From Planctomycetota bacterium (GTDB lineage Bacteria > Planctomycetota > UBA1135), in contig JAJFFB010000100.1 of NCBI GenBank assembly GCA_021776925.1, forward strand, positions 35,894 to 99,893: 64,000 nt of DNA, written 5' to 3'. How positions within the stretch are numbered: position 1 is the stretch's first letter; the number at the start of each line of letters is the position of its first letter. Below, in pieces: positions 3,101 through 57,086 of this stretch. Both the position numbers and the translations under genes were made by a program. The notes under the pieces were generated by a model. The model was given only the letters and a program-made list of their open reading frames with translations. It was not told the DNA's origin and made no database searches.

Positions 3101-4079
3101 GCGTCTGCCCGCGCGCCCGGTAGAGGTGCAGCGCATCGGCGGTTTCGTGGCACTATTGTTCGCCGGCGGGAGCGGCGAGATGCTGCTGCAGGTGCGCGAG
3201 CTGGCAAGTGGCACGCTGCTGCTCGAGGAAACGGTCTCGGTGCGGCCGGAAAGCCGCCACCGCATGATCGAGGCCGGGGGCGACCTCTACCTGTTCCAGT
3301 CGCAGGTGCCCAAGGTGGTGCGGGTGCCGATGTTCCGCCACCAGGACCCGGACAACCTGGCCCTGCGTACCTCGCCGACTTCGAACGAAATGCAACGGGC
3401 GCTGGCCTTCCCCGGTGGCCTGATGATCCCCTTCTCGCGGCGCCAGTCGCAGTTCCTGCACTTTCAGGAACTGGGCAAAACACGCGAGGTCGAGCTGGCC
3501 GACAAGGCGCTGCTGCGCACCTTCCACAGTCCCGGCGGCCGCGGCTGGCTGACCCAGCCGACCGGCGCTGGATTGCGCGATTCCGCCAGCCGCATCTGGT
3601 GGCAGGGCGCAGCGATGGACCGCGCCGAAAGTCTGACCTTCCGCGACCTCGAAGTGCGTTTCGCCAACTTTGAAGACTACAGCCAAGGCGCCGAAGACCT
3701 CGGCGTGGACCGCATGCTGGCTTTTGAAAAGGCCGTCGACGGCACCGTGATTCTGGTGCAGATCGATCTTCCTGCCGACGGTCCCCCACGGCGTGGATGG
3801 TCCCTGCCACTGAAAGAGCTGCGCTACGACCGCCTGTCCTCGACCATCGCCGATCCGGTGGCCACCGAAGACGGCTGGGTGCTGGCACTGAAATTGCTAC
3901 CCGATGGCGGTCGTGGGCGGCGCATGATCACCCTTCTGGTCGACACCGACGGACGTCTGCGCGACACGATCAGTTTTGACACCGACACCACCAGCAGCCT
4001 GCAGATGCGCCTCGATGTCGGCGACGGACACGTTTTGTTGCGCCACGATCACCTCATCTACCTGCTGAGCAAAGACTGA
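132..4079 (+). CDS. large exported protein with PQQ/BamB-like beta-propeller repeats
   Basis: ORF 99..4079. ATG at 132 overlaps the upstream stop and starts a hydrophobic N-terminus (MLFHHLLLLLPGIAF). Recurrent propeller-type motifs: VAALDLGSGNEVWQF, AFAADSGELLWRQ, VALDLYTGEQQWKT, ISALDPDNGRSLWTR, ALNAEDGSLL. Confidence 0.75.
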   Translation: MLFHHLLLLLPGIAFQRTEPEQEPGVTVPVDRALESVLEDAERFLQEEEQAGAAVALLQEVLEAGPQVLVPGAEPGLYLGASVRAESLLAGLSAAGIAQRNELVHRRAAAALAEALDPPDPAALRQIAARFLATPVGERAAMALAELELDRGFHGSQRIAAPFFLPVYSDEKDARLPLVDASGLRPLWRYHFRDPRIQHNTRSHRLAFGEGLVYLTNGVEVAALDLGSGNEVWQFPYAPGWDDLGERDIQEIFAGYNPDMLTVPVIEDGILLVVLQEPMAVGRFDEFARAPGYSSIAVRRKLPARRLYAFAADSGELLWRQKVPWLESQAGEPRGMVAAPPAASHGKVFLMVYDAVGTIDVSMVALDLYTGEQQWKTFLVSGQQETNLFGNILREMACQPPAADSERVIVCTNLGTISALDPDNGRSLWTRVYPRTRVHTFQNGLESSRPETFANGPLAYQDDLVVCAPRDSSTALALNAEDGSLLTSWPYADGDYGQLRSLVGVTKRGVWFHGTHLAFLPFPGSGAPTRVSKPLYGSNGRASSRFSAALAWGEALAPAGNVIRVLDPQSCESTSTIVGFPGSGHEMGPLQVAPGLAFILRPGGVTAYSSPRAILKTLARTGADEDSLERILPFLEGVDLSDQVTAERVAERTEELIDAAPNDALAERLRLLAARGRFALAEGVRALDLLQPLLRSHDSSRRLDAAILALDVLERSDPAHSMFEPVLRILENSERSLLHRHDGRIEPRTVTLARAHVLRSGSRQFGSNGHLDALLHLLAMENLDRFNQGSLDLEHWARLQLHATLKDPQAASRLERKARRAFDREAPSDSLMRRFAGTDTAWEWIRQAASAGADPTDLVLIAGWLRNFDWPDPAAAESLIDPAKLLDDKMVARLPKGLEVQWRYDLEGAHLLDMRVTENGGRLLVLDKIEAFLVDLDAHGSKAGSPVRLAPASSLLEPISRRAFVHRNGATIIAGTTWWQLYPDDRYQTLRLPARPVEVQRIGGFVALLFAGGSGEMLLQVRELASGTLLLEETVSVRPESRHRMIEAGGDLYLFQSQVPKVVRVPMFRHQDPDNLALRTSPTSNEMQRALAFPGGLMIPFSRRQSQFLHFQELGKTREVELADKALLRTFHSPGGRGWLTQPTGAGLRDSASRIWWQGAAMDRAESLTFRDLEVRFANFEDYSQGAEDLGVDRMLAFEKAVDGTVILVQIDLPADGPPRRGWSLPLKELRYDRLSSTIADPVATEDGWVLALKLLPDGGRGRRMITLLVDTDGRLRDTISFDTDTTSSLQMRLDVGDGHVLLRHDHLIYLLSKD

Positions 4080-5158
4080 TGCTGACCACCGCACTGCTGC
4101 TTCTCGCCCAGGTGGCGGTTGCCCCGCCGCAACCGTCGGTCCTGTCCCCCGAAGGCCTCGCCGCTGCCAACCGCGGACTCGCCTACCTCGCCAGCAACCA
4201 GCGCGAAAACGGCGCGTGGTCGGCCGACGTCGGTTACAAACTGGAAGACAGCTACCGCGTGTGGAATTACGATTCCGCCCACGTCGGGGTCACCGCCCTG
4301 GCCGGCATGGCTTTCCTCGCCGGTGGCCACGTGCCCGGCCGCGGGCCCTATGGCAAAGTGGTCGAGCGGGCCACCAACTATCTATTGAAGCACATCCGCA
4401 GCGACGGCTATATCACCGACAACGAAACGCGCATGTACTCGCACGCCTTCGCCACGCTGTTCCTGGCCGAGGTCTACGGCATGAACCAGCGCGACGACGT
4501 GCGTCCCACCCTGCAGAAGGCGGTCGACCTGATCGTTGCCAGCCAGAACACCCAGGGTGGCTGGCGCTACCAGCCGCACGTCGCCGACGCCGACATGTCG
4601 GTGGCGGCGTGCCAGGTGATGGCTTTGCGTGCGGCGCGCAACATCGGCATCCGGGTGCCGCGCCAGACCATTGACAAGGCGGTCAAATACGTGCGCGACA
4701 GCGCCGTGCGGGAAGAGGACAGCCTGTTTCTGTCCCCCTACACCGTGCCAGGGATGTTCCGCTACCAGCCGCAGGTGCGCTCGCGCGCCTCCGAGCCGCT
4801 GACCGCCGCAGGTATCACCATCTTGCACGGAGCCGGAGTTTACGCCGACGCTGACATCGAAAACGGCTTCCGCGTGCTCGACCGCCGTCTCGAACCCTTT
4901 TCGATGGAATACGGTCCGCGCTACAACGGCCACTACTACTTCTACTACGGCCACTACTACGCAGTCCAGGCCTACCACATTGCCGGCGGCAAGCGCTATG
5001 AGAAGTACTTCCGCTTCATTGAGCGCGTGCTGCTGCAGATGCAGAAGGAAGACGGGTCGTGGCCGAACCGCATCGGACCGGGCCCAGCCTACGGCACCGC
5101 CACCGCCTGCCTGATCCTGCAGATACCCAAGGAGTACCTGCCGATTTTCCAACGATGA
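4079..5158 (+). CDS. secreted prenyltransferase/squalene-oxidase-repeat (terpene-cyclase-like alpha/alpha toroid) protein
   Basis: Signal-like N-terminus MLTTALLLLAQVAVAPP. Repeated Q-x-x-x-G-x-W motifs (NQRENGAWS, QNTQGGWRY, QKEDGSWPN) are typical of this repeat family. ATG overlaps the upstream stop (TGATG at 4077-4081). Confidence 0.75.
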   Translation: MLTTALLLLAQVAVAPPQPSVLSPEGLAAANRGLAYLASNQRENGAWSADVGYKLEDSYRVWNYDSAHVGVTALAGMAFLAGGHVPGRGPYGKVVERATNYLLKHIRSDGYITDNETRMYSHAFATLFLAEVYGMNQRDDVRPTLQKAVDLIVASQNTQGGWRYQPHVADADMSVAACQVMALRAARNIGIRVPRQTIDKAVKYVRDSAVREEDSLFLSPYTVPGMFRYQPQVRSRASEPLTAAGITILHGAGVYADADIENGFRVLDRRLEPFSMEYGPRYNGHYYFYYGHYYAVQAYHIAGGKRYEKYFRFIERVLLQMQKEDGSWPNRIGPGPAYGTATACLILQIPKEYLPIFQR

Positions 5159-20081: not shown

Positions 20082-20111
20082 GGGTGTGCAGCGTGCTGCG
20101 CACCCTTTTTT
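20082..20111 (+). terminator. intrinsic-terminator-like hairpin in the nusA 5' leader
   Basis: 10-bp stem GGGTGTGCAG / CTGCGCACCC (one G-T wobble), 4-nt loop, then TTTTTT at 20106-20111. It lies 58 nt upstream of the nusA ATG. Confidence 0.55.
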
Positions 20112-52856: not shown

Positions 52857-53840
52857 GTGTGGCCGGAAATCTTCAGGTTGGAACTGGGCGGATTCTCGTT
52901 GCCCTTGCGGAGCTTCGGCTTCTTTGTGGCACTCGGTTTCCTGATCGGCGTGCAGGTCGCCGGACGGCTGTCACGGCGTTATGGCACCGACCCCGAAAAT
53001 GAGCTGCAGAAGGTACCGGAGGTCAGTTGGAGCGTTCTTCTGGGAGTGATCCTGGGCGCACGGCTGGCGTACGTACTGGTCAACATCGGCCATTTCTCCG
53101 CCCACCCGGTCGAGATCCTGAAGATCTGGGAAGGCGGCCTGGTGATGTACGGCGGGCTCATTTTAGCCCTGTTCATGGGCATCCGGAAGGCGCGCAAGCT
53201 GGGCATGAATGTGTGGCGCACCGCCGACTATTTCCTCGTCGCCGGCTTCCTCGGCCAGGCCATCGGGCGCCTCGGCTGCCTGTCGGTGGGTGACGACTAC
53301 GGCCGTCCGCTTGAGCGGGCCGCCGACGGCAGCGCGCCGTGGTTTGCGATTACCTTCCCGGATCCACTCCCCTTCGGCTCTGCCTTCCCGCCCGAGCTGG
53401 CTGGTATCCCGGTCCATCCGACCCAGCTGTACATGGCGGCCAAGGCGCTGCTGCTATTCGTCTTCGGCCTGTGGCTGCTGCGGCGCAAGCGCTTCGACGG
53501 CCAGGTCATGGCGCTGCTGATGATGGGCTACGCCGGCCTGCGCTTCCTCATCGAGTACTTCCGCTACGACGCCGAAGCGCGCGGCGGTATCTTCCGCGCC
53601 GGCGCCAGCCCGGCCGACACCCACGTGCGCCTGCACGAGCTCGGCGTCGCCACCGCCGACGGCCGCATCACCGACTTTGCCGCCTACCGGCGGCTGATCG
53701 CCGAAGGCGCCGAGGGCATCCATCCGCAGCTGCTCTTGTCGACCTCGCAGATGGCGGCGATCGCCACCTTCGTGGTGGCGCTGTTAATTTACCGGCGTCT
53801 GCGCGGTCAGCAGAGCCCGCCCCTACCCACGGACGGCTAG
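52857..53840 (+). CDS. lgt: prolipoprotein diacylglyceryl transferase
   Basis: GTG start. Polytopic membrane protein with GGLVMYGGLI, GQAIGRLGC and HPTQLY motifs. Confidence 0.9.
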   Translation: MWPEIFRLELGGFSLPLRSFGFFVALGFLIGVQVAGRLSRRYGTDPENELQKVPEVSWSVLLGVILGARLAYVLVNIGHFSAHPVEILKIWEGGLVMYGGLILALFMGIRKARKLGMNVWRTADYFLVAGFLGQAIGRLGCLSVGDDYGRPLERAADGSAPWFAITFPDPLPFGSAFPPELAGIPVHPTQLYMAAKALLLFVFGLWLLRRKRFDGQVMALLMMGYAGLRFLIEYFRYDAEARGGIFRAGASPADTHVRLHELGVATADGRITDFAAYRRLIAEGAEGIHPQLLLSTSQMAAIATFVVALLIYRRLRGQQSPPLPTDG

Positions 53841-54797
53841 ATGGTCTTCCTCGCCGGCGTCGATGAAGCGGGTTACGGCCCCTTCGTCGGGCCCTTCACG
53901 GTCGGCTTCAGTCTCTTCCGCGTGCCGGAATTCGACACCGATCTGTGGCCGTTGCTGAACGGTCCGGTGGTGCGCAAGGCCGCGCGCGGGGATCCGCGCG
54001 TGCGCGTCGACGACTCCAAACGGGTGCATCAGGGGCGGCTCGGCCGCGGCCGCCTTGAGCGCAGCGTCGCCGCCTTCCGCGAGGTGCTGCACCCTGGCGA
54101 AGACGACGTGCACGCGTGGCTCGAAGCGGCGCCGGCCGGACCGGGTAGCTGGGTGGCGCGCTCTCCGTGGTTGAGCCAGCTCAGCGGCCGGCTGTGCCCC
54201 TCGGTCAGCCGCGAACGCACGCGCCTCGACGCCGCAGCAATCGGCCGCGCGCTACGCATCGGCGGCTGCACCCTCGACGCCTTCGGCAGTCGCGCGGTTC
54301 CGGCCGGCGAATGGAACGACTGGATCGAACGCACCCGCAACAAGGGCGAAACCCTCTTCCATCTGACCATGGAAGTCGTGCGTCATCTGCTCGAGCGCAC
54401 CGGCGATGCGCCGTTGCGCATCGAGCTCGACCGCCACGGCGGCCGCCGTTCCTATGGCAGCCGTTTGCAGAAAGCGCTGCAACCGCAACGCCTGATCCGC
54501 CACGGCGAAACCGGCGGCGGTTCGACCTACACCCTGGTGTTCGCCGATCGCGAGGTGCAACTGCGCTTTTCAGAGGGCGCCGATCAGAAATTCTTCTGCG
54601 TGTCCCTCGCTTCCCTGGCCGCCAAACAGACACGTGAGCGCTGCATGGATGCCTTCAACCAATGGTGGCTGGAGCGCCTTCCCCAGGTCGCTGCCACCAA
54701 GGGTTATGGCGTCGACGGCAAGCGCTGGCTGGCGGAAACCGCCGAACTCGCCGCCGCCTTCGGCGTCGACGAGGCAGTTCTGCGCAGAACTCGTTGA
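53841..54797 (+). CDS. rnhB: ribonuclease HII-family protein with extended C-terminal region
   Basis: GVDEAGYGPFVGPF (DEAG motif), VDDSKRV and SLASLAAKQTRERCM. At 318 aa it is about 100 aa longer than typical RNase HII. Confidence 0.65.
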   Translation: MVFLAGVDEAGYGPFVGPFTVGFSLFRVPEFDTDLWPLLNGPVVRKAARGDPRVRVDDSKRVHQGRLGRGRLERSVAAFREVLHPGEDDVHAWLEAAPAGPGSWVARSPWLSQLSGRLCPSVSRERTRLDAAAIGRALRIGGCTLDAFGSRAVPAGEWNDWIERTRNKGETLFHLTMEVVRHLLERTGDAPLRIELDRHGGRRSYGSRLQKALQPQRLIRHGETGGGSTYTLVFADREVQLRFSEGADQKFFCVSLASLAAKQTRERCMDAFNQWWLERLPQVAATKGYGVDGKRWLAETAELAAAFGVDEAVLRRTR

Positions 54798-54859
54798 GTT
54801 GCGCGATCCTGCTGGCCGAAGATAGAGTGCCCCCGTCCGGTGCCGCCGGGCCACCCCAG

Positions 54860-54931
54860 ATGCGCTCCTCCTTCCACTTCTACGCCTACGCGGGCCGCTT
54901 TTACGGCTACCGCGGGCGGGTGGTTGGCTAG
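54860..54931 (+). CDS. candidate aromatic-rich leader peptide (23 aa: [23 protein letters not shown])
   Basis: ATG at 54860, TAG at 54929-54931. It has 3 Phe and 4 Tyr codons. It lies 22 nt upstream of a terminator hairpin and 80 nt upstream of the CM-PDT-DAHPS gene. Confidence 0.55.
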
Positions 54932-54953
54932 GCAGCGCGATTTGCCGAATCCA

Positions 54954-54980
54954 CCACCCGCCGACTGCGGGTGGTTTTTT
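54954..54980 (+). terminator. intrinsic terminator / attenuator hairpin upstream of the pheA-aroF fusion
   Basis: 8-bp GC-rich stem CCACCCGC (54954-54961) / GCGGGTGG (54967-54974), 5-nt loop, then TTTTTT at 54975-54980. An exact second copy of GCGGGTGG at 54916-54923 could pair with the 5' arm instead. Confidence 0.65.
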
Positions 54981-55010
54981 CATTCCATCCGCTCCGCACC
55001 CAGCAGAGGA

Positions 55011-57086
55011 ATGAAAGACTCCGACCCACTCGAAGATCCGCGCCCGCAGATCGACGGCAGCGACCCGCTCGAAGATCCGCGCCTGCAGATCGACGGCATC
55101 GATCAGGCCCTGATCGACCTGATCGCGCAGCGCATGAACGCGGTGCGTTCGATCGCCGAGATCAAGGACGCCGACCCGCACCAGCCGCTGCGCGATGAGT
55201 CGCGCGAACGCCAGGTGCACCAGACCTGGCGCCGGCGTGGTGCCGCAGCCGGTCTATCCTCCTACTTCCTCGGCCGCATCCTGCGCGAGATTGTGCACTA
55301 CTCGCGGCGCGATCAGGAACGGCGTCTGCGCGGTTTGGACCCAGCTGCCGGGGTCGGCGACAAAGTGGTCGGATTTCAAGGCATCGTCGGCGCCCACAGC
55401 CAGCTGGCGGTGGCCAAGCTCTACACCTCGCGCTGCGGGGTGACCCCGCGCAGCCGCGGCTACGCCGGTTTCGAGGAAGTGGTCGAGGCTCTGGAGCGCG
55501 GCGAGATCGACGCCGGCCTGCTGCCGATCGAGAATACCACCGCCGGCAGCATCAACGAGGTCTACACCCTGCTCGGCAAGCGCCGCCTGCATATCGTCGA
55601 CGAAGAGTACTGGGAGGTGCGTCACGTTCTCGCCGCCAAGCACGCAATTCCGGTCGACGAGCTGCGCGTGATCCGTTCGCACCCGGTGGCGCTGCGCCAG
55701 TGCGGCCACTTCCTCAGCCGGCTGCGCGAAGTCGAGGTCGAGCACGCCTTCGATACCGCCGGCGCGGCGCGCGAAATCGCCAGCGGCGACAGCCTGACCA
55801 CCGCCGCGATCTGTTCCGAAGAAGCGGCGCGCGAATACGGCCTCGAGGTGCTGGCGCGCGATCTCGCCGATCAGCCCGACAACATCACCCGCTTCGTGCT
55901 GGTGCGGCTGCAAGCCGAATCTCCCGACCCGCGCCTGCGCTGCCGCACTTCGATGGTGCTGACCACCGATCACCGCCAGGGTTCGCTGGCGCGCTGCCTC
56001 GACATCTTTTCCGAACGCCGCATCAATCTGTGCAAGCTGGAGAGCAGGCCGCAGCCGGAAACGCCCTGGCAGTACCTCTTCTACCTCGACATCGAGGGAC
56101 GCCTGGCGCACCCGCAGGTGGCTGCCGCGATCGAGGAGGTGCGCAGCCACTGCAACTCCTTGCGCATCCTCGGCTGCTACCCGATGCGCAACCTGGTCGA
56201 AGCCCTGCCGACCGAGGAAACTGAACCGGCTGCAGAGGCGCCCGCGGGTGGCAAGGTGGTCGCCGAACCCGCCGCGGCGGCGCGGCCCCATCCGCGCCGC
56301 ATCGCGGTGGGAACGGCGCTGTTCGGACCCGATCAATTCACCGTGATCGCGGGGCCGTGTGCAGTGGAAAGCCGTTCCCAGATCCTGCAAGGAGCAGAGA
56401 TGGTGCGCGCCGCCGGCGCCACGCTGCTGCGCGGCGGAGCCTTCAAACCGCGCTCCTCTCCTTACTCCTTCCAGGGACTCGGCTTCGAGGGCCTCGAACT
56501 GCTGCACCAGGCCGGCCGCGCCTACGAACTGCCTATAGTCACCGAGGTCCTGCGCCCGGAAGACGTCGCCGCGGTGGCCGCAAAGGCCGACATGCTCCAG
56601 GTCGGGGCGCGCAACATGCAGAACTTCGCCCTGCTGCAGGAACTCGGGCGCATCGATCGTCCGGTGCTGCTCAAACGCGGCATGAGCGCGACCTTGGACG
56701 AGATGCTGCTGGCCGCCGAGTACATCATGGCCGGGGGCAACCACGAGATCATCCTGTGCGAACGCGGCATCCGTACTTTCGAGCCGGCCACGCGCGCCAC
56801 CCTCGACCTCAGCGCGGTGCCGGTGTTGAAGGAACGCAGCCCACTGCCGGTGATCGTCGACCCCTCACACGCCGCCGGGCGGCGCGAATTGGTGATTCCT
56901 CTGGCGCTGGCCGCGGCCGCTGCCGGCGCCGACGGCCTGATCGTCGAGTGTCACCCCGACCCGGCGGCGGCGCGCTGTGACAAAGAGCAGGCGCTCACCG
57001 GCGAGGACCTGCAGCGCTTGATGCGCGCGCTGGTGCCGATCCTGGAAGGAGCAGGCAAACGCCCGGGGCAGCGCGGCGTGGCCTGA
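55011..57086 (+). CDS. fused chorismate mutase / prephenate dehydratase / ACT domain / DAHP synthase (type I-beta)
   Basis: ATG at 55011 with AGAGGA upstream. CM helix: [29 protein letters not shown]: [15 protein letters not shown]...[18 protein letters not shown]: [40 protein letters not shown]: [45 protein letters not shown]. Confidence 0.85.
55023..55100. repeat. 39-nt in-frame tandem duplication (2 copies, 3 mismatches)
   Basis: 55023-55061 and 55062-55100 encode [13 protein letters not shown] / [13 protein letters not shown] at the start of the chorismate mutase domain. Confidence 0.9.

Follow-up and report, generated by a model that had tools for sequence, protein, structure and literature searches.

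A probable leader-peptide attenuator with phenylalanine and tyrosine codons upstream of a trifunctional aromatic-biosynthesis gene of a Planctomycetota bacterium

Introduction

How is expression adjusted when the entry step and the phenylalanine branch of aromatic amino acid synthesis are encoded by a single gene? The question is raised by a locus in a stretch of 64,000 nucleotides (nt) from a Planctomycetota bacterium (assembly GCA_021776925.1, contig JAJFFB010000100.1, positions 35,894 to 99,893 of the forward strand), which will be referred to as the window and in whose coordinates positions are given unless a locus is named. The gene in question encodes a fusion of chorismate mutase (CM), prephenate dehydratase (PDT) and 3-deoxy-D-arabino-heptulosonate 7-phosphate (DAHP) synthase, and is preceded by a short open reading frame (ORF) dense in phenylalanine (Phe, F) and tyrosine (Tyr, Y) codons and by a hairpin with a run of T residues. 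From the letters alone, this arrangement had been interpreted as an attenuator following the logic of E. coli pheL and trpL (the sequence-only reading). Our computational analysis supports this interpretation, with refinements, and we consider the likely explanation of the locus to be transcription attenuation of the CM-PDT-DAHP synthase gene, mediated by a ribosome that translates a leader peptide. The switch would very probably raise expression of the gene when Phe or Tyr is short, a dependence which we infer. The mechanism invoked here is classical and of an already known kind.

Results and Discussion

The leader ORF and its competing RNA folds

The 23-codon ORF with three Phe and four Tyr codons, described by the sequence-only reading, is present upstream of the structural gene and its composition exceeds what chance would provide (Table 1). 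The Phe codons start at 54872, 54878 and 54899 and the Tyr codons at 54881, 54887, 54902 and 54908, placing all seven inside 13 codons. This is the highest density among the 457 ATG-started short ORFs of 8-45 codons on both strands of the window, the runner-up having four. At least six F/Y per 13 codons occur at just two sites in the six frames of the window, the leader being one of them. The other site (4907-4980, plus strand, carrying YNGHYYFYYGHYYAVQAYH) lies inside ORF 4079-5158, near the C-terminus of its 359-residue product, and represents a Tyr-rich protein segment and no leader. Within the leader, the aromatic codons form two clusters because of a 21-nt tandem duplication, for which Tandem Repeats Finder reported a period of 21, 1.9 copies and 85% matches. 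Through this duplication the aromatic codons became twice as numerous, and part of the 1:2 hairpin described below also derives from it. The leader ORF ends 79 nt upstream of the structural gene and is in a different reading frame.

Table 1: Features of the leader region and the structural gene in the window.
Feature	Position	Strand	Basis and details
Candidate sigma-70-like promoter	54799-54828	+	Read by eye; -35 TTGCGC (54799-54804), 18-nt spacer, -10 TAGAGT (54823-54828)
1:2 anti-antiterminator hairpin	54857-54944	+	Minimum free energy (MFE) and centroid folds of the free RNA
Leader peptide ORF	54860-54931	+	ATG start, 23 codons, TAG at 54929-54931
First regulatory codon cluster (F5, F7, Y8, Y10)	54872-54889	+	Constrained folds; stalling predicted to give read-through
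21-nt (7-codon) tandem duplication	54877-54917	+	Tandem Repeats Finder; FYAYAGR / FYGYRGR
Second aromatic cluster (F14, Y15, Y17)	54899-54910	+	Stalled ribosome predicted mostly to cover the adjacent antiterminator strand
Antiterminator (2:3)	54915-54962	+	Folding, shuffle test; GGCGGGUGGU (54915-54924) with ACCACCCGCC (54953-54962)
Intrinsic terminator (3:4)	54953-54980	+	Terminator scan, folding; stem ACCACCCGC/GCGGGUGGU, 9 base pairs (bp)
Structural gene, CM-PDT-DAHP synthase trifunctional fusion	55011-57086	+	Pfam CM_2, PDT, DAHP_synth_1; 691 residues
39-nt tandem duplication, 5' end of gene	55022-55102	+	Tandem Repeats Finder; 2.1 copies, 92%

The hairpin downstream of the leader qualifies as an intrinsic terminator. 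Its GC-rich core consists of CCACCCGC (54954-54961), the 5-nt loop CGACT and GCGGGTGG (54967-54974), is extended by the pair A54953-U54975 and is followed by six T residues (T6) up to 54980, with a folding energy of -16.8 kcal/mol. The sequence-only reading had given an 8-bp stem 22 nt past the ORF; hairpin, T6 and position stand, with the extra pair bringing the stem to 9 bp and its start to 21 nt past the leader stop codon. The distance of 30 nt between the T-tract and the ATG of the structural gene (55011) is as first read, and the domain content of the gene was confirmed by Pfam. Clean hairpins with T6 are found at only two sites on the plus strand of the window, including this one.

The 3'-arm octamer GCGGGTGG is repeated exactly at 54916-54923, within the last codons of the leader, as had been noticed before. 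The window contains seven copies of it in 128,000 strand positions, compared to 6.4 expected from shuffles, and three of the seven are clustered within 60 nt at the leader locus. The copy in the leader can pair with the 5' arm of the terminator, and the resulting antiterminator is larger than the 8 bp originally proposed: it comprises 10 bp, two further pairs and an inner hairpin (54931-54946), with a total of -31.2 kcal/mol, of which the duplex alone would provide -20.2 kcal/mol. Pairing of the terminator 5' arm with the 3' end of the leader yielded a gain of -11.4 kcal/mol compared to -3.7 ± 2.7 kcal/mol for shuffled sequences (p ~0.01). Antiterminator and terminator are mutually exclusive.

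Folding of the region recovered both competing structures and in addition a 1:2 hairpin which the sequence-only reading had missed. In this hairpin the 5' half of the leader, where the AUG and the first F/Y codons lie, is paired with the 3' half containing GCGGGUGG, with an energy of -44.7 kcal/mol when folded alone. The complete 151-nt region was more stable than all of 200 dinucleotide shuffles (z = -3.4). As modelled, the leader has all that the four-segment scheme of a classical attenuator requires.

How the predicted fold depends on ribosome position

The translating ribosome was modelled by keeping a block of bases around each A-site codon unpaired in constrained thermodynamic folds. The MFE structure of the free RNA consists of the 1:2 hairpin plus the terminator, with a probability of 0.99 for the central terminator base pair; the free RNA is predicted to terminate because the 1:2 hairpin sequesters segment 2. 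With the ribosome at Y8, this probability fell to 0.0002 and that of the antiterminator reached 0.9997, whereas with the ribosome at the stop codon the central terminator pair formed with a probability of 0.9997. For A-site positions at codons 1-13, which cover F5, F7, Y8 and Y10, all 10 antiterminator pairs and no terminator were obtained, and from codon 14 through the stop codon all 9 terminator pairs formed. Variation of the 3' edge of the footprint from +9 to +16 moved the boundary between codons 13 and 14 by no more than one codon. F14 is a borderline codon, giving the antiterminator solely with a 3' footprint edge of at most +12. Hence the predicted effect of a ribosome at the stop codon was reproduced, and stalling at aromatic codons led to the antiterminator for F5, F7, Y8 and Y10 and, with a short footprint, for F14; the two remaining Tyr codons, for which the same had been claimed, are considered below.

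Based on these folds the following course of events can be proposed. Transcription would begin before 54860, with the weak candidate promoter or read-through from the preceding gene as its source, and a ribosome would translate the 23-codon leader while RNA polymerase advances. With an ample supply of Phe-tRNA and Tyr-tRNA, the ribosome would reach the stop codon and mask segment 2 (54915-54927); when no ribosome is loaded, segment 1 would pair with segment 2. With segment 2 either masked or paired, the 3:4 terminator would form and transcription would stop 30 nt before the gene. Scarcity of charged Phe-tRNA or Tyr-tRNA would cause the ribosome to stall at F5, F7, Y8 or Y10, where it would open the 1:2 hairpin and leave segment 2 free. 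Free segment 2 would then pair with segment 3 to form the antiterminator, so that the terminator would be blocked and the polymerase would enter the gene.

The same layout in related loci

The protein encoded by the structural gene is a singleton from a Logan assembly of SRR15505519; its nearest homologue is 58-59% identical, and scans of genomes and metagenomes for relatives returned 41-55% identity at best. Its closest solved structures are DAHP synthases (DAH7PS) of the Thermotoga, Pyrococcus and Listeria type and prephenate dehydratases, the DAHP synthase part belonging to type I-beta.

Four related loci with PDT-containing genes show a leader and switch layout as in the window: L165 (58% identity to the window protein, leader MRATFTSSFFFFADASPKSGAATG), L170 (57%, (V)NPTATTRAFFFAGFSRKGGAFVG), L082 (49%, MNGNMRNRCSLFFTFSAGESLPGG) and L085 (44%, MAISTVSYFSYFFTPPIRGRG). 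In each of them a strong terminator is located 22-30 nt past the leader stop, and codons 17-23 of the leader hold a copy of the locus's own terminator 3' arm, complementary to its 5' arm. The helix sequences are different in each locus. The distance from leader stop to gene is 70-81 nt in five loci. An alignment of five leaders with MAFFT brought start codons, TTT codons, stops and terminators roughly into line, but the stems were gapped and in no structural register; helices were mapped locus by locus in place of column-wise pair counts. Further leaders are possible in L164, L004 and L007; L164 was kept as a possible member with a terminator loop of more than 9 nt, which is beyond the terminator finder.

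A wider survey covered 154 loci with related DAHP synthases, taken from genomes and metagenomes. An aromatic short ORF followed by a terminator was detected on the sense strand upstream of the gene in 43 of them (27.9%). Each of two controls, the antisense strand of these regions and other windows within the loci, gave 1.3%, which corresponds to an approximately 21-fold enrichment upstream of DAHP synthase genes. With a stricter peptide threshold (at least 6 aromatic residues in 13), 20 out of 78 loci were positive, compared to 1.6% of the controls. The peptides are conserved within groups, reading MT(R/N)FWFSATYYYGFFGYNRWG in Gemmatimonadaceae, MKFxxYSYxWRFT in Terriglobia and xAAEYFYFxF in Clostridia. 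The leaders in the range L013-L154, with Phe, Tyr or tryptophan (Trp, W) codons and terminators, come from Gemmatimonadota, Acidobacteriota/Terriglobia and Clostridia and precede type I-beta DAHP synthase genes; examples are found at 722-805 in L016, 2609-2680 in L028, 2635-2730 in L071 and 1667-1744 in L125.

Equilibrium folding was dropped as a test for these leaders, as the terminator 3' arm should be absent while the antiterminator forms. Truncated transcripts were used in its place: the energy gained when the terminator 5' arm pairs with the natural upstream sequence was compared with that for shuffles, and 16 out of 44 loci reached p < 0.05 (Fisher combined p = 1.7e-12).

The codon content of the leaders follows the architecture of the gene. 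Trp codons are present in only one of eight leaders of PDT-containing fusions but in 26 of 38 leaders of genes encoding DAHP synthase only (p = 0.0055, 46 loci). The other fusion-gene leaders are more often dominated by Phe or contain Phe only; those of L039 and L149 are Tyr-rich like that of the window. The codon mix therefore appears to be tuned to the fusion architecture, with Trp accompanying stand-alone DAHP synthases and none when the enzyme is fused to the Phe branch. We infer that the short ORFs act as translated sensors, because this Trp-codon pattern is otherwise hard to explain.

Weighing the interpretation and its alternatives

Several observations weigh against an attenuator of this kind. 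No Shine-Dalgarno sequence precedes the leader ATG, and it is likewise missing before the leader ATGs of L165, L170 and L082. The candidate promoter, from which a transcription start near 54835 is predicted, is weak (3/6 and 4/6 consensus matches), and a sigma-70 consensus scan called no promoter at the locus; better-matching promoter-like elements are found in the same relative position in L165 (TTGACC-N17-TAGCTT) and L164 (TTGACA-N18-TATAAT). In the footprint model Y15 and Y17 lead to the terminator, being too near to segment 2, the antiterminator strand, to give read-through, so that together with F14 three of the seven aromatic codons are predicted to favour termination. The leaders expected in relatives were found in the four loci named above, and approximately half of the related trifunctional loci examined are leaderless (L162, L166, L167, L169, L001, L002, L005, L006 and L010). 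No close relative of the window was found that would reveal conservation of the leader or base-pair covariation; the neighbouring Tex-like protein reaches at most ~50% full-length identity. When MFE folds with a masked ribosome were calculated at equilibrium for 44 other leaders, the terminator won in most of them at any ribosome position, and the switch in most other loci rests on kinetic arguments.

An alternative that we consider unlikely regards the hairpin with T6 as the plain terminator of the upstream operon, consisting of lgt (52857-53840) and an RNase HII-like gene (53841-54797), with the aromatic ORF and the octamer repeat as coincidences. It is the first terminator after the upstream stop codon at 54797, the upstream genes lie on the same strand, as they also do in L165 and L170, and one terminator can serve both purposes. 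Coincidence is nevertheless improbable in view of the F/Y enrichment, which is unique among the short ORFs of the window, and of the octamer copy and 1:2 hairpin, which together yield a position-dependent switch. In addition, the module is kept beside unrelated upstream genes (for a DUF2878 protein in L165, for an SSF transporter in L170), and the ~21-fold enrichment before DAHP synthase genes speaks against a plain terminator. The two functions may be combined: a terminator scan found no other terminator between the upstream stop codon and 54953, and transcripts reading through from the upstream operon probably also enter the leader, whose terminator may in addition mark where this operon ends.

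A slightly less probable alternative, which we also consider unlikely, is a real switch that is set without a translating ribosome, by an RNA-binding protein, by uncharged tRNA in the manner of a T-box or by a riboswitch for a small molecule, with the ORF left untranslated. In Firmicutes, T-boxes or a protein (TRAP) often control aromatic genes, and the leader ATG without a Shine-Dalgarno sequence would fit an untranslated ORF. However, a search of 54000-55600 against Rfam at E <= 10 revealed no leader family, T-box or riboswitch, and at the gathering threshold no match was obtained in the whole window or in 20 related loci; weak matches to mir-1905 and rsmX (minus strand) merely reflect the hairpin. 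The leader is also short, with ~150 nt compared to ~200 nt or more for a T-box. The bias towards codons for the exact products of the pathway and the Trp pattern that tracks gene architecture would be hard to explain for an untranslated ORF, and a leader lacking a ribosome binding site has been documented for C. glutamicum ilvB, as cited in PMC4046766.

A further alternative, that the structural gene itself begins at a GTG at 54840 and encodes an N-terminal extension here, is very improbable. ORF 54840-57086 is open in the frame of the gene, but the extension would place a strong terminator with T6 inside the coding sequence, and the leader ORF is in another frame. The homologues of 671-695 residues have their start 8-10 residues ahead of the conserved IDxID helix; with the 13-residue duplication described below allowed for, their alignment begins at the ATG at 55011, by which the extension was excluded. 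A ribosome-mediated attenuator is consequently retained as the likely explanation.

The structural gene and its neighbourhood

The sole Shine-Dalgarno-like element of the structural gene is GAGG (55006-55009), which is unusually close, 1 nt from the ATG; relatives of the gene have AAGGAG-like elements at normal spacing. The 39-nt duplication adds 13 residues, as a repeated segment, just before the first chorismate mutase helix. It is missing in the homologues, and adjoins the switch without being part of it.

The two upstream genes are co-directional with the leader. The RNase HII-like gene abuts lgt, and its 318-residue product showed a partial, weak match (residues 240-293, E = 4e-8). Scans for tRNA and rRNA genes gave no match in the 64-kb window. 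The second clean hairpin with T6 (20082-20105, plus strand) is GC-rich, has an energy of -19.1 kcal/mol and is located 64 nt upstream of a nusA-like gene (start 20170, MRKEEVLRMIDAIHRERQVDREILF). NusA is autoregulated through a leader terminator in other bacteria, and by analogy this hairpin may be a leader terminator of that type.

Implications

Because the enzymes are fused, a single leader would be able to control DAHP synthase at the pathway entry together with CM-PDT of the Phe branch. For the committed step of aromatic amino acid synthesis in an uncultured lineage, known only from metagenomic reads, the locus offers a regulatory annotation that is concrete and can be tested. On balance it also seems plausible, with clearly less confidence than we have in the window's own attenuator, that the surveyed leaders constitute a cross-phylum, largely uncatalogued set of Phe/Tyr/Trp attenuators before type I-beta DAHP synthase genes, extending over Acidobacteriota, Gemmatimonadota, Clostridia and the lineage of the window. 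No description of such a cross-phylum DAHP synthase leader set was found in the searchable literature, and the set is also absent from Rfam 15. If it is real, classical attenuation would be a common gate of shikimate pathway entry well beyond Proteobacteria and Actinobacteria. About a quarter of the sampled type I-beta DAHP synthase genes carry an aromatic leader plus terminator not covered by Rfam, which is perhaps more useful than the single case and suggests that too few leader-peptide attenuators are annotated beyond the model phyla. The leaders would moreover be a source of natural switches responding to Phe, Tyr and Trp, of use in comparative studies or synthetic biology.

Comparison with known attenuators

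The pheL-pheA system of E. coli (Rfam Phe_leader, RF01859) resembles the window in its leader with end-product codons, its alternative hairpins, its read-through upon stalling, which is predicted for the window, and the CM-prephenate dehydratase gene that it controls. There is no detectable homology in sequence or structure (no Rfam match at E <= 10), and the pheL/trpL-type logic proposed by the sequence-only reading holds for the way of working and not for descent from pheL. The window leader mixes four Tyr with three Phe codons whereas pheL has a run of Phe codons, it lacks a Shine-Dalgarno sequence, its regulated protein adds DAHP synthase, the entry step of the pathway, and its host lies outside the gammaproteobacteria. 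E. coli trpL (Rfam Trp_leader, RF00513) shares the four segments (1:2, 2:3, 3:4), the regulatory codons in segment 1 and a stop codon just before or inside segment 2. It differs in the amino acid sensed, and homology is again missing; in the window, the antiterminator strand lies within the last five codons of the leader. The window element would thus function like Phe_leader and Trp_leader and is no homologue of these curated families.

Closer to the window in the gene controlled is aroR-aroF of C. glutamicum, where a leader with Phe-Tyr-Phe precedes a DAHP synthase gene. Experiments showed more read-through when Phe was limiting (Neshat et al. 2014, as related in PMC11802643; first noted in PMC4046766), and the account given in PMC11802643 describes Tyr supply as being without effect. 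Both systems place a leader containing Phe and Tyr codons before a DAHP synthase gene, but the two genes are unrelated by sequence, no CM-PDT part is fused to C. glutamicum AroF, and the window leader has more regulatory codons, in two clusters that derive from the 21-nt duplication. C. glutamicum AroF is moreover not known to belong to the type I-beta class found in the window. For Acholeplasma aroF, the motif uORFC-13-1 has been predicted, an upstream ORF with at least one Phe residue directly before an intrinsic terminator (PMC8632094). It likewise combines a Phe-codon ORF and a terminator before a DAHP synthase gene; it belongs, however, to a different, AT-rich lineage, no dense F/Y cluster has been described for it, and Rfam 15 holds no matching form. 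From all these precedents the window element is set apart by the trifunctional fusion gene, the predominance of Tyr over Phe codons and the internal duplication of its leader.

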